In this document: piece after piece, positions 2,976 through 51,448 of the stretch | How positions within the stretch are numbered: the first letter of the stretch is position 1 | How the letters are laid out: the number at the start of each line of letters is the position of its first letter | Assembly (NCBI GenBank): GCA_963659495.1 | Contig: CAVKTH010000002.1 | Coordinates: 10,712 to 74,711 of the forward strand | Direction: 5' to 3' | DNA length: 64,000 bases | Source of the DNA: Bacteroidaceae bacterium | GTDB lineage: Bacteria; Pseudomonadota; Alphaproteobacteria; RF32; CAG-239 | The notes under the pieces: model-generated | What the model saw: only the letters and a program-made list of their open reading frames with translations | Databases searched by the model: none | Told to the model about the DNA's origin: nothing | Program-made: the position numbers and the translations under genes

Positions 2976-3005
2976 GCTTCAAACATTTACAAATAATAAT
3001 CCTAA

Positions 3006-3045
3006 AAGTTACTGCGGTAATTTTTGGGATTTTTTTATTTTTCTT
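3006..3045 (+). terminator. Putative intrinsic terminator of the atp F0 operon
   Basis: Imperfect stem aagttac/gtaattt with loop tgcg, followed by ttgggattttttta. The stem is weak. Confidence 0.35.
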
Positions 3046-3096
3046 TACAACATAGTTATATATTGCTAAAATATCAGCGGATAGGCGATAGTCTGT

Positions 3097-3312
3097 CTAG
3101 GGCGTGAGAACCCTTTAATACAATTAGTCGTTATGCATAAACGACTTAAATTTTGTTATGCCGATTTCTGTTCGCTGGACGGATGTCGGCTGAATATGGC
3201 TATGAGCTGAATAAGCCGAGCCGTTCTAATTGTATTACGGTTTCTCAACATCCGCCCGCCATTTTGGTGGGTTTTGTTTTATGTGTAACAAAATTAAACG
3301 GAGTTTAGAAAT
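3097..3312 (+). ncRNA. Conserved structured 5' leader (candidate riboswitch or attenuator RNA) of pilin-like gene copy 1
   Basis: About 215 nt at roughly 80% identity to the region upstream of the second pilin-like gene (51176-51393, minus). The two copies preserve three hairpins through compensatory changes. One hairpin is agtcgtt-atgcata-aacgact (3126-3146) against agtcact-tgcata-agtgact. An intrinsic terminator (cccgcc...ggtggg + UUUUGUUUU, 3253-3280) lies 32 nt before the ATG. Confidence 0.6.
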
Positions 3313-4452
3313 ATGTATAATAATTTTGAAAATGTTAATGATAAATTTGCTGGCGGCACTAAGCCCACGTCTCTGGCACCAGTCATTCTAGGCTCTGTGC
3401 CTAGCATCTTGTGGAAACGAGTCTCTAACCTAGTTAATAAATTAACCTTATTATTAAATAAGTACTGGGATAGCATGCTTAGTGCTATTTGCAAGTTTTT
3501 TAAGTACCCCTCACCCGACGCCAAGACGTCACCCTCTCCCTCACGGGGCGAGGGTTATGGATTGCTTCGCAGCGCTCGCAATGACGCCGTAATTAATGGC
3601 GAGGGATTGCACCGCCCTTGGTGCCACAAGATACTAGGCACAGGGCCTAGTATGACTGGTGGCAGAGACGCTGGTTTTGTTAGATTGCTTCGTTGTTACA
3701 CTCCTCGCAATGACGCAAAAAGAACCAACATCGCATTTAAGGGTTTGGATGTCGTGCGTCAATACGCCGCACTTTTGGAGCGACGTGTACAACGAGGTAC
3801 ACGAGCGAGAAAAGCGCTAGTAGTGACCCGACAGGCAAACCCGCTAGGACGCAGTATGATAGAAATGCTCGGCGTTTTAGCGATTGTTGCCGTATTAACT
3901 ATTGCAGGTATTGCCTGTTATAGCAAAGCTATGACGATGTTTAAAATCAACAAATGGAAAGAAAATTTTACTATGATGATGACAAATCTTAGAGTCACAT
4001 ATTCTAACAGCCGCAGCTATAATACTGAGGCTCCGGGTAAAAACATGGTGAGTTTTTTCAAAGAAATAAATGTTATACCTGCTAATATGCTAGATGATGA
4101 AAATAAAGATTTATTCGGAAATATAGTCAGCATATATTCGCCGACATTTAGTCCGGAATGGAACCGGCTGACTATTCTGTTTTTTATGCCGCCGAATAAA
4201 GAATCTGTTGAAGTTTGCAAAGCTTTTTTCAGTCTCACTCCCGATTTTAGAAATATGTGGACGGTAAATCTCAATGATAATTTAAAAATCGGAGAATATC
4301 AACTATGCGGGTATGGCGTACCGGCTGAAATTGCTAAACAATGGAATTGTCAATATTATAGAGACGGCATTTTGCCGCAAATAGCTCAAAGCTGCGCTAT
4401 ATGTTCACAGTATTCCTGCGACCTAAAGCTTATAATAAGCAACAACAGCTAA
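3313..4452 (+). CDS. Prepilin-like protein (type IV pilin / pseudopilin N-terminal domain) with a long repeat-laden N-terminal extension; copy 1
   Basis: G-RSMIEMLGVLAIVAVLTIAGIA at codon 3847 matches the prepilin cleavage/methylation motif (Gly at -1, Glu at +5, hydrophobic helix). The C-terminal 200 aa are Cys-containing and variable. The MYNNFEN start is shared with paralogue copy 2. The 177-codon N-terminal extension (3313-3846) stays open despite being built from palindromic repeats. A true start near the TM segment cannot be excluded. Confidence 0.55.
   Translation: MYNNFENVNDKFAGGTKPTSLAPVILGSVPSILWKRVSNLVNKLTLLLNKYWDSMLSAICKFFKYPSPDAKTSPSPSRGEGYGLLRSARNDAVINGEGLHRPWCHKILGTGPSMTGGRDAGFVRLLRCYTPRNDAKRTNIAFKGLDVVRQYAALLERRVQRGTRARKALVVTRQANPLGRSMIEMLGVLAIVAVLTIAGIACYSKAMTMFKINKWKENFTMMMTNLRVTYSNSRSYNTEAPGKNMVSFFKEINVIPANMLDDENKDLFGNIVSIYSPTFSPEWNRLTILFFMPPNKESVEVCKAFFSLTPDFRNMWTVNLNDNLKIGEYQLCGYGVPAEIAKQWNCQYYRDGILPQIAQSCAICSQYSCDLKLIISNNS
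3371..3667 (+). repeat. MITE-like palindromic element inserted in-frame: 44-nt terminal inverted repeats (3371-3414 and 3624-3667), each with a ctagg-N7-cctag hairpin core
   Basis: The reverse complement of 3371-3414 matches 3624-3667 at 40/44. A shorter related element lies at the same relative position in copy 2 (51051-51112). The elements encode VILGSVPSIL and KILGTGPSMTGGRDA. Confidence 0.6.
3559..3717 (+). repeat. Two related attgc...gcaat hairpin repeats (3559-3588 and 3682-3717) inside the pilin-like 5' region
   Basis: ggattgcttcgcagcgctcgcaatgacgcc is paired with agattgcttcgttgttacactcctcgcaatgacgca. Both read in frame as LLRSARNDA and LLRCYTPRNDA. Confidence 0.5.
3739..3845 (+). repeat. 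105-bp palindromic repeat element (gggtttg...caaaccc), copy A, in-frame inside the pilin-like gene
   Basis: About 85% identical to 4508-4612. Its termini are inverted (gggtttg/caaaccc) and it has internal hairpins cgtc...gacg and gtgtac...gtacac. It encodes KGLDVVRQYAALLERRVQRGTRARKALVVTRQANPLG immediately before the prepilin Gly. Confidence 0.6.
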
Positions 4453-4461
4453 ACTAAAACC

Positions 4462-4503
4462 ATCCCGAAAACCGCAGCTGCAATCTTTGGGATGGTTTTG
4501 TTA
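4462..4503 (+). terminator. Intrinsic terminator after pilin-like gene copy 1
   Basis: A 9-bp stem aaccatccc/gggatggtt is followed by ttgtt. Confidence 0.5.
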
Positions 4504-4507
4504 ATAA

Positions 4508-4612
4508 CTCAAGGGTTTGGATGTTGTGTGTCAATACGCCGCACTTTTGGAACGTGGTGTACAAATAGTACATGAGTGAGAAAAGTGCAAGCAGAGACCT
4601 GACAGACAAGCC
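4508..4612 (+). repeat. 105-bp palindromic repeat element, copy B (intergenic, between the pilin-like gene and fba)
   Basis: Direct repeat of 3739-3845. This copy contains in-frame stops, so it is non-coding. Confidence 0.6.
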
Positions 4613-4621
4613 CTTATAAAA

Positions 4622-5671
4622 TTAGAGTTCGCCGGCAGCGTATCTTTGTGCCATATCCGACAATTTGATAGCTTTAATTTGGTCTGCATGTCCAGCAGCG
4701 CCAAAGGCAATATAACGAGCTTCGCAAACTTTCTGCATTTCTTCAATAGCAGGTTTCAAATATTTACGAGGGTCAAACTCTTTCGGATTTTCCATAAAGA
4801 AACGACGGATAGCGCCGGTAATTGCCATACGGGAATCGGTATCTACATTGACTTTGCGAACACCGGATTTAATACCGCGGACAATTTCTTCTACCGGAAC
4901 GCCGTAGGTCTGAGGAATAGCACCGCCGTAAGCATTGATTAAATCTTGCAATTCCTGCGGAACAGAAGAAGAACCATGCATTACCAAGTGAGTGTTAGGC
5001 AATTTAGCATGAATTTTTTCAATAACATCAATAGCCAAAATATCGCCGTCCGGTTTACGAGTGAATTTGTAAGCGCCGTGAGAGGTACCAACAGCCACAG
5101 CCAAAGCATCCAAATGTGTCAAAGCTACAAATTCAGCAGCTTCATCAGGATCGGTTACCAAGCGTTTTCTATCCAATTTACCCTCAGCGCCGTGACCGTC
5201 TTCTTTATCAGCCTTACCGGTTTCCAAAGAGCCGATAACGCCCAGCTCGCCCTCAACAGAAGCGCCGACAGCGTGAGCGCGGGCTACAACTTCTTGAGTT
5301 ACGCGAACGTTATATTCAAATGAAGCCGGGGTTTTGCCGTCTGCTTCCAAAGAGCCGTCCATCATTACAGAGCTGTAACCGTTTACGATAGCGGATTGGC
5401 AGATATTTACAGAAGCGCCGTGGTCTTGGTGCAAGCAAATCGGCAATTCCGGAAACATTTCAATACCGGCCATTACCATATGGCGAATCATTGGGTCGCC
5501 GGCAAATTTACGAGCGCCGGTAGAGGTTTGCAAAATAACCGGAGCGTTTACTTTTTTAGCAGCTTGCAATACAGCTAAAATTTGTTCCATATCGTTTACG
5601 TTGAAAGCCGGAACACCATAACCGTGTTCTGCCGCATGGTCAAGAATTTGACGCATAGATACTAAAGGCAT
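4622..5671 (-). CDS. fba: Class II fructose-bisphosphate aldolase
   Basis: 349 aa: MPLVSMRQILDHAAEHGYGVPAFNVNDMEQ..., with the CLHQDHG metal-binding region typical of class II FBA. Confidence 0.9.
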   Translation of the reverse strand: MPLVSMRQILDHAAEHGYGVPAFNVNDMEQILAVLQAAKKVNAPVILQTSTGARKFAGDPMIRHMVMAGIEMFPELPICLHQDHGASVNICQSAIVNGYSSVMMDGSLEADGKTPASFEYNVRVTQEVVARAHAVGASVEGELGVIGSLETGKADKEDGHGAEGKLDRKRLVTDPDEAAEFVALTHLDALAVAVGTSHGAYKFTRKPDGDILAIDVIEKIHAKLPNTHLVMHGSSSVPQELQDLINAYGGAIPQTYGVPVEEIVRGIKSGVRKVNVDTDSRMAITGAIRRFFMENPKEFDPRKYLKPAIEEMQKVCEARYIAFGAAGHADQIKAIKLSDMAQRYAAGEL

Positions 5672-21511: not shown

Positions 21512-22510
21512 ATGTCTGATAGCAACGTTTTAGAAGATGATGATTTTGAAAAACTGTTAGACAGTTTTATTAACGACTCCATGAACGAAGTGGATAGCGA
21601 CACTCCGGCGGCAGAAAAAAGTAGCCCGCTGAAAAACAGCGAGCTTGCTCCAAGCAATGAAGAAGATGATGATGAAGATATAGAGCAGATTGACTATACA
21701 TCTGAACTCAGCCCTGAAGGACAAGCCGTTAATGAAACCATGTCGGATGAAGATTTGGATAAAATGCTGGTTTCTTCCCTGCAAGACGCCAAAGTTGAGG
21801 CACAGGAAACCCACGACCAGCCGATGCTGGGCAATGATGAATCGGAACTGGCTCAAGCCTTTTTGAACTTCTATAACTCCGTAAACAAGCTTTCTATGAC
21901 GCATTTGAACAAGCCTTATCAATGCTTGTTTGAAATTGACGACCTATATCCAAACTATAAACCGAGCATCGGCAAAATTCTGTCTGATGACGTGGTTGCC
22001 GGCTGGGTGCTTTTAACCAAAATGTTTCCGCAGGAAATCGGCAATTTTCCGCTTAACTCTTCAGATGAAGCCTTTTTGAACTTTGCCGAAAAGCTGACTG
22101 ACACCGATTTGCAGCTGGCCGTAATTTCTTATGTAGAAATTTTGATAGATATGGAGGGCTGCGAACTGACCTATCAGGCAAAATTCTTAAAATATCAGGA
22201 AAAGCAAATTAAACGCCTGATGTATGAAGAATATATGGAGCGTAAAGAAAGACAGCGTAAATTTACCGAAGCTTTAGCCGCCAAAAACTTTCCGGTAGAC
22301 GCCGACAAGCTTATCAGCAACTATTTCAGGGTTGCTCAAAAAGATGTTGACGGCGCATTTAAAGCTTTGACGACCAATCCGGCAATTTTTGCGCCGATTG
22401 ATTTCAGCAAAATCAAGCCGCGCTGGTTCGGGCTTTTAAAAGTTACGCCGAAAGACGGCATCCGCGTTAATTTGGAAATCGGTAACTTTTTGAAAAGACT
22501 CAAAGTTTAG
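21512..22510 (+). CDS. Hypothetical acidic protein; first gene of the T4CP-containing operon
   Basis: 332 aa. The N-terminal ~110 aa are Asp/Glu-rich and low-complexity (EEDDDEDIEQIDY), followed by a globular C-terminal domain. No recognised motif. Confidence 0.45.
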   Translation: MSDSNVLEDDDFEKLLDSFINDSMNEVDSDTPAAEKSSPLKNSELAPSNEEDDDEDIEQIDYTSELSPEGQAVNETMSDEDLDKMLVSSLQDAKVEAQETHDQPMLGNDESELAQAFLNFYNSVNKLSMTHLNKPYQCLFEIDDLYPNYKPSIGKILSDDVVAGWVLLTKMFPQEIGNFPLNSSDEAFLNFAEKLTDTDLQLAVISYVEILIDMEGCELTYQAKFLKYQEKQIKRLMYEEYMERKERQRKFTEALAAKNFPVDADKLISNYFRVAQKDVDGAFKALTTNPAIFAPIDFSKIKPRWFGLLKVTPKDGIRVNLEIGNFLKRLKV

Positions 22511-22521
22511 TTAAAAAATAA

Positions 22522-22550
22522 TAGACAAAAATCATTTTATATGGTATATT
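22522..22550 (+). promoter_or_regulatory. Sigma-70-like promoter TAGACA-N17-TATATT, upstream of 22583
   Basis: The -35 and -10 hexamers have 17-nt spacing. A GGAG RBS sits 8 nt before the ATG. Confidence 0.4.
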
Positions 22551-22582
22551 GGCATTAAAGATTAAAAAAAGGAGTATTACTC

Positions 22583-24595
22583 ATGGCAAAAGATGTTCAA
22601 GCGGCTAGAGCAGCAACAGAATTTATGAAAGCGATTGAAAATAAAGAGTCTGACGACAAACTAAAAGCTATTCTGGGAAAAAATCCCAAGCTTTTGGAAT
22701 CTAAAGAGTTTGCTAAAAGAGTTTTCCCTAAAGTCGGCGGCAAAAAGAACATGGGTCTGGTTAGATTGGACAAAATGGTTGAAACCGTTAAAAGAGTAAA
22801 AGGACTTGCCGACAACGGAGCAATTAAGCCGGAACAGCTCAGTTCCTTTTTAGAATTAAAACAGCCGATGACCGGCGAAACTTTTGCCACTTTTACGGCC
22901 AAGCAAGCCGTTGCCGCCTGCGACAAAGCCAATACCGAACGTCCGGAATTGCCGGAAGCTGACCGAAATGTCTTTAAGCAGCATCAAACAGCTTATACTG
23001 CTCAGCTGGAAGAATTAAAAACCTTGGGCGTATCTATGGAAGCCGACCGCGAGGGCTTGACGGTTGAAGAAATTTCCAAAGCCGGAAACATCAAAGATGA
23101 AGACGGCAACTCTCCGGCTATCAGCGGAAAACCGCTATTCAAAGCCCAAACTACTGAGAATCAGCAAAGCCAGACCGACCAAGCAGCGCTGCAGGTAAAT
23201 GTAGCAGCAAATGAAGAGGGGCTGGAAGTCGGCGGCGAAGAAAAAGAGGCCTTAAAAGTTAAAGTTGCTGAAAAACCGGTAAAAGTTAATGTTCAGCCTA
23301 AGAAAAAAGAAGAAGAGGAAGATATTAACGAAGCAACGGTTGAAGACGCTCCGGAAGACGATAAAAGCAAAAATAATTATCAGGGCGACAAAATCGGAGA
23401 ACGAGATATTATTGACTATATGTACAATGAATGGTTCTTGGCCGCGGCAAGCGCGGGACTTAACTATCTTGTAAGCAAAGCCTGCGACGGCGTGGACTAT
23501 TTGTGCGACAAAAGCGACCGCCGGATGAAAAAAGCCCAAAAAGAAAAAGAAGAAAAGAAACAGGAAAAAGTCAGCGACTTCAAAAAGAACGGCGAATACT
23601 TGCTGGGCGGTGCTGTTACCAGCCTGAAAGACGGCTATGCCGCCTCTAAAAACCAAAGATTTGCCATGTGGAAAGACATTAACGATAACCTAGGCAAAGA
23701 CCCGCAGACATGGACAGCTTTTGACCCTACCAAGCCGAAAGATAAAAAATTTATTGATATGGTAAATCAAGAATATAAACAAAATCCGCAGGCCTGCATG
23801 GATAAAGTCAAAACCACTATCAAAAATTATGACAAGACCGAAAAATTTGCCGCTACCGTTTACGGCTTAGGCGTTGAAATGGCTGCAGTTGAAATGGCTT
23901 ATGAGGGAATGGATAACGGCCGTTTAACCCGCGCTGCAAAGTTTAAATGGAATCTCGGCGATTTAACTGCGGCGGATATTGATAAAAAACTAAGCAAAAA
24001 AGCTACTGAAAAAGCTAAAGAAATCCAAGAAACCCTTGAAAACGCTAATTTAGCGATAGAGCTTAAATCGGCAAGAGAGGGGATTACCGATAAAGAAGCG
24101 ATTAAAGCCAAACAAGCAGAATTCACAGCAGCTTATTTAGGTAAATTGGCTCAGCAAACCATTGACTGCAAAACCAATCTGGCAAATGATTTGGAAAAAG
24201 GCAACTTTAACTATGCCCGCTACGGCAAAAATGACAAAATGCTGGACAGCGGCGTGTCTAATGAAACCATTAAGAGTTATAAAAACATGCAGAAATTATC
24301 AAATCTTGACAAGCTCGGCGATGCAATATTGGCCAAAACCCATAAGCAAATTGTTTCTTACGACCTGAAATCAGACGCTAAAGAACGTTTTTCGCCGTCG
24401 GCTCTGGACGGAATCAACAGCCAGTTCAGCCAGACCATGGCAAGCAACAAATACTCGCAGGAGCAAAACCAGTCCCGCAAAGAAAAATTGTCGCAATGGA
24501 AAGAAAAAGTTCTGAACAGCAACAAATTTGAAAAGGTTATGGATAACAGCAACCATGTGTTCAATCAAATTCTGGTTCAATCGCGGAGCCGCTAA
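22583..24595 (+). CDS. Hypothetical 670-aa Lys/Glu-rich protein
   Basis: Good RBS. No recognisable domain. Long predicted helical and charged segments. Confidence 0.5.
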   Translation: MAKDVQAARAATEFMKAIENKESDDKLKAILGKNPKLLESKEFAKRVFPKVGGKKNMGLVRLDKMVETVKRVKGLADNGAIKPEQLSSFLELKQPMTGETFATFTAKQAVAACDKANTERPELPEADRNVFKQHQTAYTAQLEELKTLGVSMEADREGLTVEEISKAGNIKDEDGNSPAISGKPLFKAQTTENQQSQTDQAALQVNVAANEEGLEVGGEEKEALKVKVAEKPVKVNVQPKKKEEEEDINEATVEDAPEDDKSKNNYQGDKIGERDIIDYMYNEWFLAAASAGLNYLVSKACDGVDYLCDKSDRRMKKAQKEKEEKKQEKVSDFKKNGEYLLGGAVTSLKDGYAASKNQRFAMWKDINDNLGKDPQTWTAFDPTKPKDKKFIDMVNQEYKQNPQACMDKVKTTIKNYDKTEKFAATVYGLGVEMAAVEMAYEGMDNGRLTRAAKFKWNLGDLTAADIDKKLSKKATEKAKEIQETLENANLAIELKSAREGITDKEAIKAKQAEFTAAYLGKLAQQTIDCKTNLANDLEKGNFNYARYGKNDKMLDSGVSNETIKSYKNMQKLSNLDKLGDAILAKTHKQIVSYDLKSDAKERFSPSALDGINSQFSQTMASNKYSQEQNQSRKEKLSQWKEKVLNSNKFEKVMDNSNHVFNQILVQSRSR

Positions 24596-24597
24596 AA

Positions 24598-25086
24598 ATG
24601 GTTAAAAAAAGTCTTCATTACCTTTGCGTGCTGATTGCCGGCGCTTTATGGAGCGCAGCTCTGCTGCTGCTGTATTGGCAGGTATTTTTGTTTTGCTATC
24701 AGATAAACATTCTTTCGCTGCACACCTATGCTTCTATCCGCAACTACTGGAATGACGGCGGCGTGCTGAAATCCGGCGATATCTTTATGCTTTTGGGCAT
24801 ATTCTCCTATCTGCCGATAGTTCTGCTGGGCTGGAGAGTGCTGGCAAAATACAAATACATGAATCTGATTATGAAACCGCTCAGCTGGTTTGCCAACCGC
24901 GGACTGGATAAATATAGCGGCGGAATGCCTGAAGTAAACATCAAAAACCTGAAAATTGAGGAGAAAAAGACCATAGAACAACTGGTGCAAGAACGTATTG
25001 AGCTGGAAAATAAAAAGAATCCGCAGGCTAATTCGGCCGAATTCCGTAAAGAAATTGTTGAAAAGATAGAAAATGAAATCAATTAA
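24598..25086 (+). CDS. Hypothetical membrane protein (two TM helices plus a charged coiled tail)
   Basis: Its N-terminal topology, including a Trp-rich GW motif, resembles the next ORF. Starts 3 nt after the preceding stop. Confidence 0.45.
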   Translation: MVKKSLHYLCVLIAGALWSAALLLLYWQVFLFCYQINILSLHTYASIRNYWNDGGVLKSGDIFMLLGIFSYLPIVLLGWRVLAKYKYMNLIMKPLSWFANRGLDKYSGGMPEVNIKNLKIEEKKTIEQLVQERIELENKKNPQANSAEFRKEIVEKIENEIN

Positions 25087-25140
25087 CACTCTCTTTATAA
25101 ATTTGTTTTATACTGACAAGAAAAAAATGGAGTAAGACGG

Positions 25141-26637
25141 GTGAAATCCTTAATTGTCTTTGCAAGAATACTTATCGTGGGGTGCCTATGGAGCATAGTC
25201 TTCATAGAGGGCATCCGCGTGATTATGCTCTGCAACTGGCATTTTGATATTTTTTGGCCCGACCATTGGCGCCAAGCTTACGCGCTTTGGAAAGCGGGCT
25301 GGGTTATCCGCGCGCCGAAAGAATGGGCTTTTGTGATTATTCTCGTAACCTTTTTCCCTATGCTTATTACCGGCTGGTGGACGCTGTGCATGGTGGCTTG
25401 GGAACGCATTATTTATGATATTATAACATCGCCGCTGGCTTTGTACCGCCGCCTGATTAAAACTCCGCTTAACGTTATGAAAACAAACAACAAATACGGC
25501 GTAGTAAAGAGAAAATCATATAAACAAATCAGACCGGCGGGAGTGGGCTTCAGAATGCCGATTTCCGATTATGCCGACAACAAATCGGCGGCTCCGGTAA
25601 CGGCAGGCGTCGGCGGCAGTGCGGTTTTGCCGTCTCAGGTACGGCCTACCGCGGCTCCGGCAGCTCCGGCTGCGGCTAAAACCGCTAAAAAAACTGATAT
25701 TCCGTCAGCTATAGACCATGCGCTGTTCAAATTTGACGATGACGACGATGATTTTGATTTAGACATAGATTCTTTTGAAAAAGCCGATATTCTAAAGAAA
25801 AAAGAACCGGCAAAAGCTAAAAAGCCGGTCTTTGATGACGAGGATGATGAAGAAGACAATATTCCGCCGCGTAAAAATAAGCGCGACACGGATAATAGCT
25901 CTAAGCGTGCGGCTAAAAAGCCGATTTTTGACGATGATGAAGATGAAGAGGACGAAGATTTCCAGCCGCGCAGCAACAATCGCCGCAATAAAAATGACCG
26001 CAGCAGCGATAACAGCGGCAAAGACCAGCGGCAGAAAAATAAACAAAACCGCGATGACTCCCGCGGCGACAAGCCAAACCGCAATAACAAGCAAAACAAC
26101 AGCGGCGCTGACGATGATTCCGGCGAAAACAGCACGCCGCGCAGTCCGGTTTATGACAGCCTGCAGCAAAAAGGCTATGATGTTATTGCCGGCGTAAATG
26201 TCAACAATACGCTTATAGACTTTGTCGGCGTTTCGGATACGGAAATCTGCCTGTGCTTGGTGGATAAAGAAAACGGCGACTGGCTGGCTGATGAAGAATT
26301 GTTTAACGGCGAAGAGCCGCTTTGGTTTTCTGAAAACAGCCACAGAATTTCACCGGTGCGCAAATTAGATGTTGCACGCAATATAATTCGTGATAAACTG
26401 GCGGAAGAAGATTTTGAACAAGAAATCAAATCGTATGTGGTTGTACAGATGGCTAACATCATCAACGCCGATGATATGTTTGAAATTTGGAACAAAATGG
26501 ATATTGAAGTAACCCGCATCAACCGCGGCGCGCCTAAAGAAATTCATTTGTTTTCTAAATCTCTGGATGATGCCGACGGACAAATTGACCGCAAAGAACT
26601 CAACCGCCTGCGCAAGATTTTAAAAAGTATTAAGTAG
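25141..26637 (+). CDS. Hypothetical membrane protein with a highly charged low-complexity linker
   Basis: N-terminal TM helices, then DDDDDDFDLD and KKPVFDDEDDEEDN / KKPIFDDDEDEEDED tandem repeats, then a globular C-terminal domain. Its position immediately upstream of the T4CP suggests a DotM/IcmP-like partner. Confidence 0.45.
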   Translation: MKSLIVFARILIVGCLWSIVFIEGIRVIMLCNWHFDIFWPDHWRQAYALWKAGWVIRAPKEWAFVIILVTFFPMLITGWWTLCMVAWERIIYDIITSPLALYRRLIKTPLNVMKTNNKYGVVKRKSYKQIRPAGVGFRMPISDYADNKSAAPVTAGVGGSAVLPSQVRPTAAPAAPAAAKTAKKTDIPSAIDHALFKFDDDDDDFDLDIDSFEKADILKKKEPAKAKKPVFDDEDDEEDNIPPRKNKRDTDNSSKRAAKKPIFDDDEDEEDEDFQPRSNNRRNKNDRSSDNSGKDQRQKNKQNRDDSRGDKPNRNNKQNNSGADDDSGENSTPRSPVYDSLQQKGYDVIAGVNVNNTLIDFVGVSDTEICLCLVDKENGDWLADEELFNGEEPLWFSENSHRISPVRKLDVARNIIRDKLAEEDFEQEIKSYVVVQMANIINADDMFEIWNKMDIEVTRINRGAPKEIHLFSKSLDDADGQIDRKELNRLRKILKSIK

Positions 26638-26645
26638 AGGATAAA

Positions 26646-28862
26646 ATGGCACTAAAAGAACGTGGAGAAGAATGGAAAGAATATGACAGCGCCGTCCGCT
26701 GGATGATGATTACTTTTCTTATTTGTCTGGGCTTAACGATTTTCCTCTTTATTTTTGCCCTGCCTTTGTCATATTTGGTCGGTCACGGCGTTTCTAAAGC
26801 CTCTTTTGAGATGATAAATAAGTTTTTGGCCACGATTGTAGACAATCCCGGACATTTATGGGCTATGTACCTGAAATGGTTTAAGCAGCTCATCCGCTAC
26901 AACGGCTCTTTTTCGCTCAGCTTATGGCTGCCGCTGCTGCCGTTTATCACTATTCCGGTGGGTTTGATTGTCGGTGCTTTGCTCAGTCCGTATAAATTCC
27001 AAGTCAACACCCAAGGTTCGGCGCGAATCGCCGAATTACGCGACATTAACAAGATGGCTTTGCTCGGATTTGACGGTTTCTGTCAGGTTGTGGGCAAATT
27101 CAAAGGTCGCTTTTTAATGCTGAAAGAAACCTTGGCCACCCTGTGCTGCGCTCCTCCGGGTACCGGTAAAACCGCCGGCGTGGTTATTCCGACAATTTTT
27201 AACTCGGCCAAGCTGAGCATTATTGTAAACGACCCGAAACCGGAGCTTTGCTATTCTACCAGCGGCGCCCGCGCCAAAGTAGGTCCGGTGTTTATCATCA
27301 ACTGGGGTGCCGAAGATAACCCGAGCGAGGGTATTTATTACCCAAGCTGGAATCCGCTGTCGCCGAACTCCATGCCGGAAGCCGGTCCGGACCGCGATAT
27401 GTATGTGGATTCTATGTGCAATATTTTGGTGGAAGACCCTAAGGGCGGCGCAGACCCGCACTGGGCTAACACCGGCCGTGCCGCACTAACCGGCTTTATT
27501 AACTTTGTGGCCTCTAAATGCGACCGCGCCCGCGCCAATGACTATTTTATCGGGCGTATTTATGAGGGCAAGCTGGACGCCAAAGATAAAGAGATTTTGG
27601 AGGGCTATTATATGGAGATGCGCGATCCGGCGGCTCCGCGCGCCATTCAAAACCTGAAAAACGGCACTTTAACTATGGAAAACTATCTGCCTATCGGTAC
27701 TTGGAACCTGCTGCCGTCGCGCTGGATGGGACGCGAAGCCTGCATTGCCATGATTATGGAATGGATTACCGAAGCGCAGATTAACGCCGCTCAAGAAATT
27801 CAGCGCCGTATGGACGAGGGCGATCAAATGGCGGCCATGGCCGACCCGACGCATGATATGCTGGAAGAAGCCGTGAAAGAAGCCCGCAACTTTGGTTATT
27901 CGCAGCGCTGTATCACAGAATTAAGCTCACTCAGCAGTATGCCGGATAAGGAGCGCGGCTCTGTGCTTTCTACCGCTTTTGCCGGTATCGGCTGCTTTAA
28001 GAACCAAGCCGTAAAAGCCCGCACCAGCTTTTCGGATATTCAGTTCCGCGACTTGCGCGGTATGAAAGATCCGGTTACCGGCGAATGGAAACCGATTTCG
28101 GTTTATTTGTCCGTAAACCAAGTAGATGCGCGCGCTTTGGGCGTTATCAGCAGTACGTTTATTGAGCTTATGTCGTCCTACCTGATTTCTAACCCGCCTA
28201 ACCACGTTAATAAAACCGACGGTAAAATGGGACCTTTCCCGACATTGTTCATTCTGGACGAGTTCCCGCAAATGCCGAAAATGAAAGCTATTATTGACGG
28301 TCCGGCCGTAGGCCGCGGTCAGAAAGTGTCATATTTGCTGATTGGACAAGACTTAGGACAAATCTCCGGCAAATATGGTAAAGATGACTTGGAAACGGTG
28401 ATCTCTACCACCGCCTGCAAGATTATTCTTTCACAAAACAACGAGGTTACAGCTCAGCGCTTTTCTAAGATGATCGGCAACAAGACCGTACAGGTTTCGT
28501 CATTCAGCCGAACAGAGGGCAGCTTGGGCAAGGACTTTAACCCGCTGGCTAAGAATGTTAACTATCAAATGCAGGGCGTGCCGGTTATCAGCGCTACTCA
28601 GCTGCTGAGCTTGCCGTTGCTGAAGCAAGTTATCTTGATGCAAAGTTACATTGACCGCCCGATTATGGCAGATTCGCCGCGTTATTATCTTGACCCGAAA
28701 ATGCGTAAGTTGGCTAAGCTTCCGCCTTGCCCGAATGTTCCGGATTGGATTGTGGCGCAGCGTGAAGACATCAACGACGACATGCTGGCTAAGCTCGGAA
28801 TTGAGTATAATCCTGACGAAGAAGATAATGACAGCTTTGAGGCGGATACACCGCAAGCATAA
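26646..28862 (+). CDS. Type IV secretion coupling protein (VirD4/TraG/DotL family)
   Basis: 738 aa with N-terminal TM helices, Walker A CCAPPGTGKTAGVVIPT and Walker B LFILDEFPQMPKM. The acidic C-terminal tail ends ...NPDEEDNDSFEADTPQA. Confidence 0.85.
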   Translation: MALKERGEEWKEYDSAVRWMMITFLICLGLTIFLFIFALPLSYLVGHGVSKASFEMINKFLATIVDNPGHLWAMYLKWFKQLIRYNGSFSLSLWLPLLPFITIPVGLIVGALLSPYKFQVNTQGSARIAELRDINKMALLGFDGFCQVVGKFKGRFLMLKETLATLCCAPPGTGKTAGVVIPTIFNSAKLSIIVNDPKPELCYSTSGARAKVGPVFIINWGAEDNPSEGIYYPSWNPLSPNSMPEAGPDRDMYVDSMCNILVEDPKGGADPHWANTGRAALTGFINFVASKCDRARANDYFIGRIYEGKLDAKDKEILEGYYMEMRDPAAPRAIQNLKNGTLTMENYLPIGTWNLLPSRWMGREACIAMIMEWITEAQINAAQEIQRRMDEGDQMAAMADPTHDMLEEAVKEARNFGYSQRCITELSSLSSMPDKERGSVLSTAFAGIGCFKNQAVKARTSFSDIQFRDLRGMKDPVTGEWKPISVYLSVNQVDARALGVISSTFIELMSSYLISNPPNHVNKTDGKMGPFPTLFILDEFPQMPKMKAIIDGPAVGRGQKVSYLLIGQDLGQISGKYGKDDLETVISTTACKIILSQNNEVTAQRFSKMIGNKTVQVSSFSRTEGSLGKDFNPLAKNVNYQMQGVPVISATQLLSLPLLKQVILMQSYIDRPIMADSPRYYLDPKMRKLAKLPPCPNVPDWIVAQREDINDDMLAKLGIEYNPDEEDNDSFEADTPQA

Positions 28863-40921: not shown

Positions 40922-42859
40922 TTATCTGCCGCCGCGAGCCGCCAGCTGCCTCTGCAGCATTGGATTTTGCTGATTGCCCTGCTGAATAGCCTGCCGGCAT
41001 TTTTGCAAATCCGCTGCCGGAATATCCGGCAATTTCTGTAGCGCTGAAAAATCTTTAGGAACCGCCCCTTTCATCTGACGGTTATTATTAACACACGCAA
41101 CATACAATTTCAAGGCTTGTTCTTTAGTCAGCGTATCTTTAAAAATGACCGGCTTGTTTTTATTGCTCGGCTCCTGCAGCAATTTCACATACATATCATA
41201 TTCCGCGTCTTTAGCAACCTGAACTTTATCCTTTGCCGTATAGCGGATTTTATTTTGCTTTATGCTGAAAGCATACTCCTGCTCGGTATCGGCAATCTCT
41301 TTATAGCCGTCAAGCTTGCTCCAATATTTTTTAAGCTCTTTATTCCAAGAACACGGCTTTTGCGGCACCACATGAGGTTTCTGAGGATTGGCAGGCTGTT
41401 TTTCTGCTTCGGCCAATTCCGATATTTCCATGCCGTTAATATTGTTAATCAGCCGGTTTTTATGCAGATTGCCACGCATCAGCGCTTTAGCTTCATCCAC
41501 TAAATCCGGATTAACTAATCCACGGCTTCTGTCGCGGTTAAATTCAGCCAGACGGCGCGACAAATCATGCCGGCACGGCTCTATAATGTTACTGATATTC
41601 TCCGGCGTAAGCTCAACTTCCTGCGATTTATCAATTAACGGAGTCAAATTTTTTGCTTCATAAGCTCCGGTCTGCGGATTATAGAGCTGAAAGCGATACA
41701 GCAGCGAACGGCGCTTAAAAAATTCTGTCCGGTCAGTATCTTCGGCTGCACTTAAAGGCACAAGCTGGATTTCTAATTTCATATTCCGCAGAAACTGTTT
41801 TTTATCATAGCTGCGGCGATGATTTTTTGCAAATGACGCAAACGCCGAATCCAGCAAATTCTTAGGATTCTGCACATATTCAAAACGCTTGTTTTCCGGC
41901 ATATTACGCATTGCCAGCAAAAGCTGAGAAGATTCTCCGTCAAACATGCTGAAATCTTTAGGATTGCCTTTTTTCAAATAAGCGTTTGCCGCATTAAAAA
42001 CCTGTGACAAATAGGCGCTGCGTTCATCTTCTACCTGCAGGCGGTAATAATCCTCCACCGAAAGGCGTTTTGCGCCGTCCTTCAGACAATATCCGGTTTG
42101 CAGCACCGTATTTTTAACATGCGTCAGCTCATGCTTCAGCATTAAAAGCTGCTTTGCCACTTTAACCTGTTCATCCGAATAAATTTTATATAAGCTTTTT
42201 TCTTTTGCATCCGGAAAAATTTCATCAATCCGGCTATGCGGATTTATCTGCCTTGCATGCTCAGCGCGGGCAATCAGCTGCTTTAAAGTACTATAATCAC
42301 TCGGCGAAAACTTAAAATGATTGCGGACAAAGCTTACACGCTTCTCGCCGACATTAACAGAGGCGCGGCGCTGCTCAAAATCTTTAACCGCATATTCCTG
42401 CTTAACGCGGTCATAATATACATCATAAACATTATCCTGCGGCTCAATCTTATAGCCCAGATTTTTAATCAGCGGCGGAATCTCCGCATCGTCAATCCGG
42501 TTATCAAAGTGCAAGGTATTTGCGGCAGAAGCAATATGCGGCGGATAGTTATTTTCTTTCAGTCCGTTTTTATATCCTGCCGGATTTTTCATAAAATCAT
42601 AATGAGCTATCTCTTTGGCTAAAAACTCTGTATTTTTAGTATCTACAGCTTTTAAAATTTCTTTTTCCAAGGCTGAACCGCATTGCAAAGTAGCGGCAAA
42701 ATTATTATATTTATCAAAAAATTCTTTATAGGTAATCTGCTCGCAAAGCTGCTGATATTGCAGCATTTTTCTTTGCTTTTCCGCTTCATTGCCATAGTTC
42801 AGGGCAATGGCGACCACATGATTATCTGCTGTTGTCAGCAATAAAGTTTCTTTTGACAT
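40922..42859 (-). CDS. Hypothetical 645-aa protein with a single HExxH motif (KHELTHVKN)
   Basis: No recognisable family. The HELTH motif could mark a zinc metalloprotease-like core. Candidate secreted effector. Confidence 0.4.
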   Translation of the reverse strand: MSKETLLLTTADNHVVAIALNYGNEAEKQRKMLQYQQLCEQITYKEFFDKYNNFAATLQCGSALEKEILKAVDTKNTEFLAKEIAHYDFMKNPAGYKNGLKENNYPPHIASAANTLHFDNRIDDAEIPPLIKNLGYKIEPQDNVYDVYYDRVKQEYAVKDFEQRRASVNVGEKRVSFVRNHFKFSPSDYSTLKQLIARAEHARQINPHSRIDEIFPDAKEKSLYKIYSDEQVKVAKQLLMLKHELTHVKNTVLQTGYCLKDGAKRLSVEDYYRLQVEDERSAYLSQVFNAANAYLKKGNPKDFSMFDGESSQLLLAMRNMPENKRFEYVQNPKNLLDSAFASFAKNHRRSYDKKQFLRNMKLEIQLVPLSAAEDTDRTEFFKRRSLLYRFQLYNPQTGAYEAKNLTPLIDKSQEVELTPENISNIIEPCRHDLSRRLAEFNRDRSRGLVNPDLVDEAKALMRGNLHKNRLINNINGMEISELAEAEKQPANPQKPHVVPQKPCSWNKELKKYWSKLDGYKEIADTEQEYAFSIKQNKIRYTAKDKVQVAKDAEYDMYVKLLQEPSNKNKPVIFKDTLTKEQALKLYVACVNNNRQMKGAVPKDFSALQKLPDIPAADLQKCRQAIQQGNQQNPMLQRQLAARGGR

Positions 42860-47854: not shown

Positions 47855-49963
47855 CTAGTTGACCTTTCCTAAGGCACGGGATAAAATATAATAAACTTTA
47901 CCGATATCCGAACCGGAAATTAAAGCAAGCAATGTACTGGCGCGGTTATTGCTGCGGGCGGCTTCTATCAGACTGTTGAAATCATCCAGATATTTATCTA
48001 CAACCACGCGGAAATCCGGCTTTTTCTCATAGTCTTCACGCACGGCGACAACCTCTTTTTTAGTCATATTCTTTGAAAGGTAGCGCACAAAAACGCTATG
48101 GTCGCCCTCGTAATATTTTTTCCACAAAACTTCATCATCGCCGGTTTTGTTAAATATGCTGTTGATATCAATAGAAATTGTTTCCAGTTCACTTATGATA
48201 TCAGCAGAATTTTTCATAAACGAATCTATGCTGGCAACCTTAAATTTTTGATTAAACTCATCATATTGCTTTTGAGTTTTATCATAATTTTCGTTTAAAT
48301 CGTTCAGATGCTCGCCCATAACTTTGCTGAATGCCGACATTTTATTTTCATAAGCTGCTAAAGTTTTGCCCACGGTTCCGGCTGCGGCTGACATATCCTT
48401 ATTCAGCACGGCTATCTGCGAGCTAATCTGCTTCAGGCTGGCCAAAGACTTATTGACATACTCATCCTGCTCAATCAGCAAACCGGCATTTGTTTTGCTT
48501 TGGTTAGCAATGCTGTCGGCAGTTTCCGACAATTTGCCGATATTTCCGGAAACCAGACTGTTAACCTCGTTAAACTTATCTACCACGCCGCCGGCCTTGC
48601 TGCTGAAGTTATTGACGCTCGCCAGCAAACCGTCTTCCATTTCTTTCAGAGTTTGGGCTATAGAAGAAAATACTTTGCCCAATTCGCCGTTTTTATCCTG
48701 AGTATTTTTATAAAATTCCTGCAGGCGGGAAACCTCTTCGCCCAGATTTCCAACGGTTAAATGGATGTTGTTAACCATTCGGCTGCCCTCGGTTTCTAAA
48801 AGCTGGCGCTTATCAGAAATATCTGAGCCTAAACGCCCGAAAATCTCTTCAGTCTGCTGCGAAGCTTCTTTAATGCTCTTCATCTGCGCCTGAATATTCT
48901 GTTCCAAGGTGTTGGAGCGTTCAATCATGGCTTCTACTTCCAAACTGATAAGCTTGCCGTATTCGCCGAGTTTTTTATCCAAATAACCGGAATTTTTATC
49001 CAAAATCGCCGATTGCTGCTCAACTACGGTTTTCTGCTCGCTAATGCTGTTTTCTATATGCGAAATGCCCGAATCCAAGCGATGAAACAGCTCTTCGCAG
49101 TTTTCCGCCGTACGCAGAAAAGTTTTTTCCAGATTTTCGCCTTTTTCCGCCCAAGATTCAATAATCTTGCCAATCGCCAGCTGGCTGGATTCTGAATAAT
49201 TATTAAGCTGAGCCTGAGCTTTTTCTATGTTTTCATTATTTACGTTCACGACTTCCTTAATATTTTCCGCCGCGGTAACCATTTCATTTACCATCGGTTT
49301 CATAATTTGCGACAGCTGCTCGCTGTCCTCGCGAATCTGCATGGTGTTTACGCGGAAGTCAGCAGTTGTAGAAGCGGCTTTTTCGGCCACAAACGTAAAA
49401 TTTTCCACCAATTTTTTTATTTCTGAGTTTAATTCCTGCATAGTTTGAGAAGAGTAGGTGTCAAGCTCTCCGGCCAGCGATTTCATCTCGGCAATGCGGT
49501 CGCTTAAATCACGCTTAATCACATCGGCCTGAGCGCAGACATCGCGGGTTGTCTCTTTTAATTCGGAAACCTGAGCTTTTATGGCATCGGCAATCATTTT
49601 TGTTGCGGCGTTGCCGTTAGAATCCGGAAAAATTACCCGATTCAGCGAATCGCGCAGCATCTGCGTCTCATTACGGAAACTATTGCCGCGGTCAATATAA
49701 GCCATAACCACCCAAACAATCGCTAAAGGCAATGAAATTCCGGCAATAAACCCGCTGAATTCATTCGGCATCATAGAAAAAAGATTATCCCAGCCGAAAA
49801 ATTTGGTAATATATATAGCCACAATACCAAACCACATCACGCTAAAAACAATCATAAAACGATGCAAGCCGTTAGAAAACCAGCTTTCAGGCTGTTCCGG
49901 CAAATCAAAATTTTCAGTTTTATCCGATTTTTTTATTTTTTTTTCAGGATTTTTAGCGCTCAT
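47855..49963 (-). CDS. Hypothetical membrane-anchored long coiled-coil protein (TipN-like architecture)
   Basis: Two N-terminal TM helices followed by about 550 aa of heptad-rich coiled coil. No catalytic motif. Confidence 0.45.
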   Translation of the reverse strand: MSAKNPEKKIKKSDKTENFDLPEQPESWFSNGLHRFMIVFSVMWFGIVAIYITKFFGWDNLFSMMPNEFSGFIAGISLPLAIVWVVMAYIDRGNSFRNETQMLRDSLNRVIFPDSNGNAATKMIADAIKAQVSELKETTRDVCAQADVIKRDLSDRIAEMKSLAGELDTYSSQTMQELNSEIKKLVENFTFVAEKAASTTADFRVNTMQIREDSEQLSQIMKPMVNEMVTAAENIKEVVNVNNENIEKAQAQLNNYSESSQLAIGKIIESWAEKGENLEKTFLRTAENCEELFHRLDSGISHIENSISEQKTVVEQQSAILDKNSGYLDKKLGEYGKLISLEVEAMIERSNTLEQNIQAQMKSIKEASQQTEEIFGRLGSDISDKRQLLETEGSRMVNNIHLTVGNLGEEVSRLQEFYKNTQDKNGELGKVFSSIAQTLKEMEDGLLASVNNFSSKAGGVVDKFNEVNSLVSGNIGKLSETADSIANQSKTNAGLLIEQDEYVNKSLASLKQISSQIAVLNKDMSAAAGTVGKTLAAYENKMSAFSKVMGEHLNDLNENYDKTQKQYDEFNQKFKVASIDSFMKNSADIISELETISIDINSIFNKTGDDEVLWKKYYEGDHSVFVRYLSKNMTKKEVVAVREDYEKKPDFRVVVDKYLDDFNSLIEAARSNNRASTLLALISGSDIGKVYYILSRALGKVN

Positions 49964-50141: not shown

Positions 50142-50216
50142 GCCATTATAGCTCAGTGGTAGAGCACGTCATTGGTAATGACGGGGTCGCAAGTCCGATT
50201 CTTGCTAATGGCACCA
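50142..50216 (+). tRNA. tRNA-Thr (anticodon GGU)
   Basis: Cloverleaf folded by hand. Acceptor gccatta/taatggc, D-stem gctc/gagc, anticodon stem cgtca/tgacg with loop ttGGTaa, T-stem gcaag/cttgc, discriminator A, and encoded CCA. The T-loop reads tccgatt, giving an unusual C at position 55. Confidence 0.8.
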
Positions 50217-50422: not shown

Positions 50423-51175
50423 TCAAAATGCTAAAATAAGTCCGCAGACTTTACCGGCTTCTTTTGTGCATGAATTGCAAGCGCTGTTGATTTCGCTTAA
50501 AGACAAATCTCTTATACATTTTGAATTTGCCGAACAATAAGCCTCGCCCCAATAATAATAGCTGCTGTCCGTTGTAAACCACGCTACATACAGCACAGAG
50601 GCTAAAGGCTGCACGATATCCGACATTATCCGCTTGCATAACTTTGGAGAAAAGGCGGTTGAGGCTGATTTATTATCAACAACCTGAAAACTGCCTAAAT
50701 ACATATCTATAATTACACGCTCTCCAGAAGAAAAAACACGAATATAATTGCCGTTTGGGTCATGAAAATCGGAGCTGCTGTCTCTTACCCAAGTTTTCGG
50801 CACTAAATTTGCCGCCTCCACAATATCTGTCAGCCCATACTGCGCACCAGCTGTCCCATTTTTTGAAACGTTTTTTAAATCTGTAAGATGTTCTAACAAT
50901 CCATAAATTAAATAGCTGTATTCGCTAACAGCTTTGATTAGTTTGAATTGTTCCATAGCCTTGGAATATCCGGCAATTCCGCCGACACTCAGCACACCGA
51001 TAATCGCCAGCACGCCGAGCATTTCTATCATTGACCGACCAAAGGAATTTGCGTCTCTGCCGCCAGTCATTCTAGGTCGTGACGCACAGTCTGTACCTAG
51101 GATCTTGTCGCCCAAGGGTGACGCGACAGCGCAGAGCGGCGGGTATTCTAAAGCATTTTCAAAATTTTTATACAT
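50423..51175 (-). CDS. Prepilin-like protein, copy 2 (paralogue of 3313-4452)
   Basis: The MYKNFEN start lies at the same offset from the conserved leader as in copy 1. It contains the repeat-derived KILGTDCASRPRMTGGRDA segment and the G-RSMIEMLGVLAIIGVLSVGGIAGYSKAM prepilin motif. The C-terminus is Cys-containing and variable. The six-frame ORF start at 51346 is rejected because that extension lies inside the conserved non-coding leader. Confidence 0.6.
   Translation of the reverse strand: MYKNFENALEYPPLCAVASPLGDKILGTDCASRPRMTGGRDANSFGRSMIEMLGVLAIIGVLSVGGIAGYSKAMEQFKLIKAVSEYSYLIYGLLEHLTDLKNVSKNGTAGAQYGLTDIVEAANLVPKTWVRDSSSDFHDPNGNYIRVFSSGERVIIDMYLGSFQVVDNKSASTAFSPKLCKRIMSDIVQPLASVLYVAWFTTDSSYYYWGEAYCSANSKCIRDLSLSEINSACNSCTKEAGKVCGLILAF
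51051..51112. repeat. Palindromic repeat element (ctagg...cctag) related to the terminal inverted repeats at 3371/3624, in-frame in pilin-like copy 2
   Basis: gcgtctctgccgccagtcattctagg-[21 nt]-cctaggatcttgtcgcc aligns to 3371-3414 with a longer loop. Confidence 0.55.
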
Positions 51176-51393
51176 ATTTCTAACTCCGTTTAATTTGTTA
51201 CATAAAACAAAACCCGCTGTAAATGCGGGCGGATGTTCAGAAACCGTAAATCGTAATCGTAAAACGGCTCGGCCTATTCGGCGTGTAGCCTTATTTAACC
51301 GACATCCGTCCAAAAACAGAAGTCGGCATAAACAGTTTAAAGTCACTTATGCAAGTGACTGATTACGATTAAAAGGGTTTCTGACGCCCTAGG
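51176..51393 (-). ncRNA. Conserved structured 5' leader (candidate riboswitch or attenuator RNA) of pilin-like gene copy 2
   Basis: Homologue of 3097-3312, with hairpin agtcact-tgcata-agtgact (51342-51361) and terminator cccgc-atttacag-gcggg + UUUUGUUUU (51205-51235). Confidence 0.6.
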
Positions 51394-51448
51394 CATATCT
51401 CTATACCTATAAATTTTATAGCTTATGCCAAAAGGAAAGTAAAGAACT

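Follow-up and report, generated by a model that had tools for sequence, protein, structure and literature searches.

In-frame palindromic modules in the 5' part of a type IVb-pilin-like gene of an uncultured alphaproteobacterium from the gut

The locus and the composition of the mosaic

We report that a gene for a type IVb-pilin-like protein, located in a 64,000-nucleotide (nt) stretch of contig CAVKTH010000002.1 (the window, to which all coordinates without a locus name refer), carries a mosaic of palindromic DNA modules between its start codon and the part encoding the mature protein. The open reading frame (ORF; 3313-4452, plus strand) is open throughout, encodes 379 amino acids (aa) and is positioned between atpF' (2319-2975) and the convergent fba gene (4622-5671). 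It comprises a leader of 179 aa followed by G/RSMIEMLGVLAIVAVLTIAGIA (the slash marks the predicted cleavage site), with a glycine at position -1 (G-1), a glutamate at +5 (E+5) and a hydrophobic helix. Together, G-1, E+5 and approximately 21 hydrophobic residues (alpha-1N) identify a class III (prepilin) signal peptide, and all three are present here. The AlphaFold2 model of the mature part (predicted local distance difference test, pLDDT, 83.6) has a helix covering residues 3-54 followed by beta-sheet. Using Foldseek against the PDB, the best matches to this model were CofA and TcpA with a probability of 1.00 and a template modelling (TM) score of 0.54-0.63 (matched entries 9iuf_A, 8uhf and 3s0t), and as modelled the mature domain is a pilin fold.

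The mosaic (3333-3845) lies between the native ATG at 3313 (reading MYNNFEN) and the cleavage glycine (3847-3849), contains no stop codon and has the same frame as the gene. It consists of at least seven hairpin modules, several with a CGTC tag, and folding of the whole insert gave a z-score of -9.6. The features of the locus are listed below (loci and contigs other than the window are given as L numbers; TIR, terminal inverted repeat).

3313-3332, plus strand: native start and first six to seven codons of the ancestral short leader (MYNNFE-); the same sequence directly joins AGG-CGx (Gly-1, Arg+1) in L005, L002 and gene 1 of L001
3333-3845, plus strand: 513-bp (171-codon) in-frame mosaic of palindromic modules, missing from short-leader alleles
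3358-3421, plus strand: P-unit, forward (reads LAPVILGSVPSILW), with CGTC at 3368; the left 'TIR'
3422-3499, plus strand: AT-rich hairpin module (VSNLVNKLTLLLNKYW) and SMLSAICKFF segment, common to other paralogues
3500-3558, plus strand: GC-rich hairpin module (KYPSPDAKTSPSPSRGEG), in which CGTC at 3527 abuts the stem ACCCTC...GAGGGT
3559-3603, minus strand: module b1, CGTC-ATTGC..GCAAT-CCA, 45 nt (15 codons) present here and absent from L006
3604-3680, minus strand: P-unit, reverse (reads HRPWCHKILGTGPSMTGGRDAG), with GACG at 3667; the right 'TIR'
3681-3738, minus strand: module b2, CGTC-ATTGC-N18-GCAAT-CTA, and linker
3739-3845, plus strand: module (c), a hairpin of 105-107 nt (reads KGLDVVRQYAALLERRVQRGTRARKALVVTRQANPL), always directly before the Gly-1 codon
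3847-4452, plus strand: Gly-1 codon (3847-3849), mature type IVb-pilin-like protein (RSMIEMLGVLAI..., 200 aa) and stop
4456-4499, plus strand: hairpin with 22-nt arms just past the stop, the probable terminator of the pilin gene
4508-4615, plus strand: degenerate intergenic copy of (c), referred to as (c'), between the pilin terminator and the convergent fba; found at the same site in other strains

An earlier note on this DNA had described the 5' part of the ORF as a mosaic of palindromic elements open in frame, composed of (a) a 300-bp unit bounded by TIRs, (b) two short hairpins and (c) an element of 105 bp. The sequence features behind (a) to (c) are all present where it placed them and are non-random, and the stop-free ORF agrees with the description of a mosaic. 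The interpretation of the 300-bp unit as one TIR-bounded element was, however, rejected. A repeat search identified inverted-repeat arms at 3358-3421 and 3617-3680 (64 nt, 83% complementary), in BLAST 3368-3414 matched 3670-3624 over 47 nt with 91.5% identity, and there is a CTAGG-N7-CCTAG hairpin in each arm. These arms are two independent copies, in opposite orientation, of one palindromic module (the P-unit; folding z-score of the right copy, -3.4) with other modules between them. The unit is not discrete because L006 has the right arm only, the second pilin paralogue in the window (paralogue 2) has one arm, and other paralogues have single arms in either orientation. What the note had regarded as a truncated relative in paralogue 2 was recovered as one P-unit, matched by BLAST at 51052-51076.

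The (b) hairpins (CGTCATTGCGAG...GAAGCAAT; minus strand, 3561-3586 and 3684-3715) are present in two copies in the window, both in the leader, and none is expected in shuffled sequence. A CGTC is found immediately next to the stem in b1 (3586, minus strand), in b2 (3715, minus strand) and in the GC-rich hairpin (3527), and the outer ends of the P-units carry CGTC or GACG. Together, CGTC and GACG occur 17.5 times per kb in the insert vs 4.7 times per kb elsewhere, a 3.7-fold enrichment. For module (c) (3739-3845; 107 nt) we obtained a folding energy of -47 kcal/mol (z = -5.6), and for the copy at 4508-4615, which aligns to (c) over two blocks with 91% and 80% identity, -40 kcal/mol (z = -5.2). 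BLAST of the insert against plasmid and phage collections gave no match. Rfam provided no model for any of the mosaic modules: a scan of the window at the gathering threshold returned tRNA-Thr only, a scan of 2980-4650 by E-value gave nothing on the mosaic, and no family matched the metagenome arrays of (b) described below.

Variation between strains and distribution of the modules

For comparison, we recovered this locus, with its flanking genes, from six other strains. In L005, L002 and the first gene of L001, L003 and L004 the site is empty, i.e. ...TTTGAAAA joins AGGxCG directly (ATG TAT AAx AAT TTT GAA AA followed by A GGx CGx), and these alleles encode MYKNFEKG/RSMIEML with an ordinary leader of eight residues. 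The mosaic represents DNA inserted into a short leader and is dispensable. In L006 the mosaic is approximately 450 bp, is without the left P-unit and both (b) modules and has 12 additional nt in the loop of the right P-unit, and it stays open. At this locus one mature pilin is found behind three different 5' architectures (the window and L006; gene 2 of L001; L005 and L002), which points to recombination between conserved segments of paralogues. Both window paralogues have the same left junction, GAAAATG, which points to descent and not to independent insertion. We also note that the short-leader alleles look decayed: the start ATG is ATA in L002 (L002:11864-11900), and the mature part ends early, at 131 aa in L002 and 117 aa in L005 (L005:11516-11893, minus strand) vs 200 aa.

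The modules are present in multiple copies in related genomes, in both orientations and in combinations that differ among paralogues. In 367 kb from at least six genomes (partial), every module copy is in the 5' region of a pilin-like paralogue, the one exception being a degenerate (c). When all leaders were masked and the remaining 353 kb subjected to BLAST search with 38 leader sequences, the only matches were shared segments of promoters and 5' untranslated regions (UTRs), the (c') remnant and a few segments next to further pilin-like genes. Searching proteins with the 179-residue leader, we obtained 146 matches, the full-length ones being 245-315 aa. Among the 120 that were listed, 106 have the pilin N-terminus that was searched for, four have a variant of it (RSMVEML or RSMIEIL) and ten, mostly on short contigs, are without it; the identifiable proteins are all pilin-like, and no unrelated protein family was found among these matches (120 listed of 146). 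This confinement to pilin 5' regions argues that the modules do not constitute a randomly dispersed family of the type formed by the Rickettsia palindromic elements (RPEs). The pilin-like paralogues lie dispersed, one or two together, between housekeeping genes.

With a 22-mer from (c) as query, 24 loci were identified in species-representative genomes, nearly all of them belonging to five Hadza metagenome-assembled genomes (MAGs), with up to 11 copies per MAG. In at least five MAGs the full copies of (c) immediately precede the Gly-1 codon of a pilin paralogue in 24 of 24 cases, always in one orientation and reading ...GLDVVRQYAALLERRVQRGTRARKALVVTRQANPLG/RSMIEML. The only exception to this position is the degenerate copy at 4508-4615, which is 3' of the gene. 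This copy carries a 1-nt deletion that is found in none of the 24 genic copies, and it may be what is left of a lost downstream paralogue or, alternatively, a 3' recombination or terminator element. The matched Hadza-gut MAGs are labelled 'uncultured Alphaproteobacteria', and an identical FbaA protein is also encoded on contigs from human and pig gut metagenomes; the source of the window is an uncultured gut alphaproteobacterium present in human (Hadza) and pig gut.

Module (b) has a wider distribution. Its core (GATTGCTTCGCNNNGCTCGCAATGAC, 23 specified bases) was identified on at least 120 contigs of Joint Genome Institute (JGI) metagenomes with GC contents ranging between 34 and 72%. The core usually has an inverted partner approximately 25 nt away (inverted dimers, 103 of 150 among the matches listed), and it is sometimes organised in tandem arrays with a period of approximately 121 nt (e.g. 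L068:3910-4903, L107:1897-2223 and L081; contigs L034-L153). The flanks commonly read ...GCAATCCA, a CCA-type tail, and the stop-to-stop frames of the matches give the peptides DCFASLAMT, GLLRFARNDG, SLRAKRSNP and VIASEAKQS. A literature search by sequence string returned only chance primer matches, and the (b) sequence was not found in the supplements of the paper on CGTC-tagged repetitive extragenic palindromes (REPs; Di Nocera et al. 2013). Since its core is so widespread, (b) is a local copy of a widespread hairpin and not a new family.

These data bear on the remaining proposals of the earlier note. Variation in presence or absence among orthologous pilin genes, for which it had suggested looking, is found, the mosaic being missing in L005, L002 and gene 1 of L001, and the modules are multi-copy and not unique to the two window loci. 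Its comparison of coding and intergenic copies came out differently from what a dispersed family would give: in the 367 kb all copies are in pilin 5' regions, with the one degenerate (c) being intergenic. The suggested RPE-like behaviour stands as regards the in-frame reading, and (b) also shares the head and tail of CGTC-tagged REPs; dispersal into assorted ORFs and intergenic sites is not seen. The idea of a new family does not apply to (b), with its core on that many contigs.

Reading frame, phase switching and constraint

Gly-1 is invariant in 49 of 49 paralogues, with all four Gly codons being used, and in the paralogue set Arg+1 is encoded by CGN and AGA and Ser+2 by AGY and TCN. This synonymous variation at -1, +1 and +2 requires translation to begin upstream of Gly-1. 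In the gene at 3313-4452, 552 nt are open ahead of the mature codon, with no in-frame stop vs 11 and 22 stops in the other two frames. For 33 distinct long leaders (4018 codons in total), the open stretches vary between 60 and 202 codons and the other frames contain 255 and 304 stops (one per approximately 13-16 codons); that the leaders have zero in-frame stops is true by definition, the stretches being delimited by stops, and the evidence is their length. Comparing leader with leader, the high-scoring segment pairs (HSPs) are in the same frame in 579 of 605 cases (96%). The stronger statement that all indels are multiples of three was not sustained at fine scale, given 1-2-nt gaps in the BLAST alignments, and the frame argument rests only on net lengths and HSP frame agreement. 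Moreover, there are several types of start (MYKNFE..., MLKSIEFLRGKSRG..., MRGNK... and MKNKLFKG-(TC)n), and the same modules recur behind each of them, combined differently and in frame. For most of these pilin genes, the start is misplaced by gene callers, often inside the mosaic.

The last of these start types provides further insight into the frame. The (TC)n paralogues have the promoter TTGACT-17-TATAGAAT, a Shine-Dalgarno (SD) sequence, the start ATG AAA AAT AAG CTA TTC AAA GG, a TC tract and then an open frame of 222-579 nt into the pilin, such that the ATG-(TC)n start is located 220-580 nt upstream of the mature part. Loci of this type are L001:11890-12100 (minus strand), L031:1001-1080, L032:338-400 and 19 further among L007-L030; the two pilin genes in the window are without the tract. 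The distance from the tract to the +1 codon is a multiple of three in 22 of 22 paralogues, with 14 different lengths. A tract length of 15 or 17 nt is out of frame (OFF) and one of 13 or 25 nt in frame (ON). ON tracts are present in public assemblies (P0091/L032 and P0059/L031), and for the same locus in different samples L031/P0059 is ON vs L001/L003, which are OFF. Hence, between samples the length of a repeat in the 5' coding region varies and sets the frame, and from these tract lengths (TC)n appears to be a classic slipped-strand phase switch in the leader-coding region of the sister paralogues. Only with ribosomes reading through the mosaic would a frame switch hundreds of nt upstream make sense. 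P0020 and P0034 have an additional upstream ATG (MRKERWKISNQKVSLSLSANP...), which is in a different frame and opens that of the 17-nt tract, and in this lineage two of the three tract phases could be ON. An apparent homology between the internal AEFGIKNHTFGNN in (TC)n-type leaders and the start region TEFRNMYKNFENV of the UTR-type genes (see below), i.e. a fossil start, is suggestive only and was not used.

Module (c) shows no sign of the codon structure seen in the adjoining mature part. Over the 24 genic copies the entropy at codon positions 1, 2 and 3 is 0.17, 0.19 and 0.18, and 12 alternative codons are synonymous and 26 non-synonymous. For the next 30 codons of the mature protein the corresponding values are 0.33, 0.29 and 1.24, i.e. 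there is a third-position excess. The hairpin of (c) is kept, with 96% of the cells paired over 27 copies, four compensatory pairs and the loop being the most variable part. Given the equal variation at the three codon positions together with the kept hairpin, the mosaic peptide looks like a passenger, where the palindrome and the open frame are maintained and not the amino acids. The copies of (c) are 88-99% identical (90-99% in 23 of 24), and adjacent synonymous sites look saturated. This conservation implies recent spread, gene conversion or a function at the nucleotide level. We also considered (c) as an attC site of an integron cassette, and this was rejected by eye, as its ends fit RYYYAAC/GTTRRRY inconsistently and (c) is read in frame.

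Upstream of the ORF, and at paralogue 2, the following features were predicted.

3044-3072, plus strand: putative sigma-70-like promoter TTTACA-17-TAAAAT with extended TG, ahead of the leader RNA (consensus match only)
3085-3312, plus strand: conserved structured 5' leader RNA of the 'UTR-type' pilin paralogues, ending in a terminator-like hairpin (3254-3272 and a T-run) and followed by the SD GGAG
50423-51175, minus strand: paralogue 2, with MYKNFEN, a 39-codon insert and G/RSMIEML (46-aa leader); one P-unit (51051-51112)
51176-51400, minus strand: second copy of the conserved structured 5' leader RNA, from sequence comparison

The 5' leader RNA is approximately 230 nt, has several stems with compensatory change in eight of 54 predicted pairs, and resembles an attenuator or riboswitch-like element, or a small RNA (sRNA). 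In the E-value scan of 2980-4650 with Rfam there was a weak, sub-threshold match to sRNA-Xcc1/C4 antisense RNA at 3171-3265 (30 bits vs a gathering score of 53). The tRNA-Thr (GGT) gene is at 50142-50216, approximately 200 bp from the 3' end of paralogue 2, and an ankyrin-repeat protein is encoded immediately beside this paralogue. The window also encodes a VirD4/TraG-type coupling protein of a type IV secretion system (T4SS), an EF-hand protein and a 1677-aa ORF (among 26646-28862, 51449-53143, 54297-55103 and 58246-63279), and the long ORFs 21512-26637, 40922-42859 and 47855-49963 have no Pfam match. This content of T4SS coupling, ankyrin-repeat, EF-hand and long-ORF genes fits a host-associated bacterium.

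Interpretation and comparison with known systems

Taken together, we find it reasonably probable that the gene encodes a type IVb-pilin-like prepilin, the leader of which has been lengthened from approximately eight to 179 residues by in-frame REP-like palindromic modules that are translated and subsequently cleaved off. Translation would start at the native ATG at 3313 and run through the mosaic; the encoded basic peptide would stay in the cytoplasm, and a prepilin peptidase would remove the leader after Gly-1, leaving the mature pilin unchanged. Both this start and the cleavage after Gly-1 we infer from sequence, as well as recombination as the means by which the modules spread. The leader would tolerate such DNA provided that it is stop-free and has a length that is a multiple of three, with the constraint acting on nucleic-acid hairpins and reading frame and not on amino acids. 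Duplication, recombination or gene conversion would carry the modules from one paralogue to another and deletion would remove them, with no free transposition, and the hairpins may have roles in e.g. mRNA stability or processing, or in stimulating recombination.

Several observations weigh against this interpretation. Cleavage of leaders of 46-200 aa is without precedent, the known range being 6-30 aa. The prepilin models PF07963 and TIGR02532 match paralogue 2 only, and below threshold (14 bits vs a cut-off of 21.2 and 12.1 vs 16.3, respectively), and neither the window nor the surroundings of the paralogues examined yielded a gene for a prepilin peptidase or for pilus assembly. In the genome assemblies, the (TC)n paralogues, 22 in number, are all OFF, and there are many 1-2-nt gaps within the BLAST alignments of leaders. 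Module (c) is far better conserved than neighbouring synonymous sites, which fits a nucleotide-level function equally well with recent spread. Finally, a GTG inside (c), present in 23 of 24 copies, would give a leader of normal size (nine aa, MTRQANPLG/).

This GTG leads to an explanation in which the leader is not translated: the mosaic would be a structured 5' UTR with the start in or after (c), e.g. GTG at 3823 giving MTRQANPLG/RSMIEML, the hairpins would regulate or stabilise the RNA, and the open frame would be a by-product of stop-free modules. A canonical nine-residue leader available in almost every copy, the lack of amino-acid-level selection on (c) and its hairpin kept with compensatory changes are in keeping with this, as are the highly structured insert (z = -9.6) and the gene callers, which often start inside the mosaic. 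It nevertheless appears unlikely to us, since open stretches of 60-202 codons run through 33 module combinations with 255 and 304 stops in the other frames, every net length is divisible by three with 96% of the HSPs in the same frame, and the (TC)n switch, with real ON and OFF alleles, is placed hundreds of nt upstream. Moreover, L030 has GAG for the GTG, and the conserved SD and the ATG at 3313 are found in the short-leader alleles as well. An active, autonomous-like mobile family (RPE-like or similar to MITEs, the miniature inverted-repeat transposable elements) with many targets, for which pilin leaders are simply where insertions survive, would account for the two orientations and variable combinations of the modules, their presence in some strains and absence in others, the 3.7-fold enrichment of CGTC tags in the insert, the (b) core on at least 120 environmental contigs of 34-72% GC, and copies of (c) that are 88-99% identical beside saturated-looking synonymous sites, as expected for recent spread. 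Yet 367 kb from at least six genomes contain no copy outside pilin 5' regions bar the degenerate (c'), the two (b) copies in the window are both in the leader, (c) is always at the same junction and in the same orientation, and the two window paralogues share the left junction GAAAATG. There is, in addition, no transposase among the window genes with a Pfam match (several long ORFs being unmatched or unscanned), and CGTC REPs are without a known dedicated transposase; we judge a mobile family of this kind to be decidedly unlikely.

The inverted repeats (3368-3414 and 3624-3670) might also be thought to flip the segment of approximately 300 bp between them and so toggle expression. The arms are 91.5% identical in inverted orientation, and inverting 3368-3670 in silico introduces exactly one stop (codon 57) with the downstream frame intact, i.e. 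a clean OFF state. However, all loci and proteins carrying the segment have it in one orientation only, L006 is without the left arm, the P-unit is single in paralogue 2 and many other paralogues, and there is no adjacent recombinase, which makes an invertible switch very improbable. A further and rather unlikely suggestion is that (c) and the other palindromes, instead of being passengers, serve as a recombination and expression-switching device for ten or more dispersed, variable type IVb-pilin genes. Conserved structure-forming DNA beside each variable cassette would then promote gene conversion or cassette exchange, by which promoter and start modules (the riboswitch-like leader RNA, (TC)n and the MLKS-type) might be reconnected with different mature pilins, in a role analogous to that of the guanine-quadruplex (G4) element beside Neisseria pilE. 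The long leader would be the price of placing the device in the only disposable part of the ORF. This is hinted at by the three 5' architectures of one mature pilin at a single locus, by (c) flanking the window cassette on both sides, and by a sharp drop in nucleotide identity at the (c)/Gly-1 junction.

If translation and cleavage of the long leaders indeed occur, as in the prepilin interpretation that we favour, the sizes accepted for class III signal peptides have to be extended several-fold, a cleavable leader tolerates structured repeat DNA, and the known cases of RPEs and intragenic REPs are extended to a host protein that is left wholly unchanged. The finding also has a bearing on host colonisation and immune evasion, the pilin family of this uncultured gut alphaproteobacterium being large, variable and in part phase-variable.

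Class III leaders are cytoplasmic, are cut after Gly by the prepilin peptidase and comprise 6-26 aa, approximately 15-30 aa in type IVb pilins (Berry & Pelicic 2015, PMC4471445). The protein described here is like the type IVb pilins (TcpA of V. cholerae and CofA of enterotoxigenic Escherichia coli, ETEC) in G-1, E+5, the alpha-1N helix, a mature size of approximately 200 aa and the fold. It is unlike them in its leaders (179 and 46 aa in the window, and up to approximately 200 aa in paralogues), in having Arg at +1 and in that the genes are away from any assembly operon. With the Correia elements of Neisseria and other hairpin MITEs, (c) shares the character of a near-perfect co-transcribed hairpin of approximately 105 nt with similar size and stability; unlike these, it has no recognisable TIR or target-site-duplication signature, is at one fixed position and is read in frame. 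In Neisseria, repeats in the signal-peptide coding region, (CTCTT)n in opa and poly-G in pilC, cause phase variation. The sister paralogues resemble opa and pilC in that a simple repeat in the leader region sets the frame of a gene for a surface structure, and they differ in that the repeat is a dinucleotide, located 220-580 nt upstream of the mature part with a hairpin mosaic between.

The RPEs, RPE-1 to RPE-10, are palindromic units of 45-150 bp that are read in frame in either orientation and add passenger peptides (PMC10969869). The mosaic modules, like RPEs, form hairpins and are in frame and stop-free in the host ORF in both orientations; the comparison is one of behaviour and of the shared CGTC tag. 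RPEs are present in dozens of unrelated genes and in intergenic regions, whereas here the modules are in pilin-like leaders only, stacked to approximately 200 codons. CGTC-tagged REPs have a CGTC head, a stem starting with AT and a CCA tail, and are found mostly in Alphaproteobacteria, sometimes within genes and then often at the N-terminal end (Di Nocera et al. 2013). RPE-4, RPE-6 and the Neisseria dRS3 are placed among them, and they have no known dedicated transposase; the published families have stems of 8-9 bp with loops of 4-5 nt and each genome has tens to thousands of dispersed copies, for the most part dimers (Di Nocera et al. 2013). Module (b) has the terminal CGTC abutting the stem, the A-T start of the stem and a CCA (b1) or CTA (b2) tail, and it is unlike these families in having a stem of five perfect bp and an inner 2 bp (GC/GC) with 12-18 nt between the halves. 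There is also no genome-wide dispersal in the DNA examined, and (c) and the P-units are longer and more complex. In the DNA covered, the mosaic lacks the dispersal that characterises RPEs and CGTC REPs alike, and it differs from RPEs and intragenic CGTC REPs in being one of a set of long stacked mosaics in the cleavable leader of a single protein family, with a dinucleotide phase switch in sister genes.

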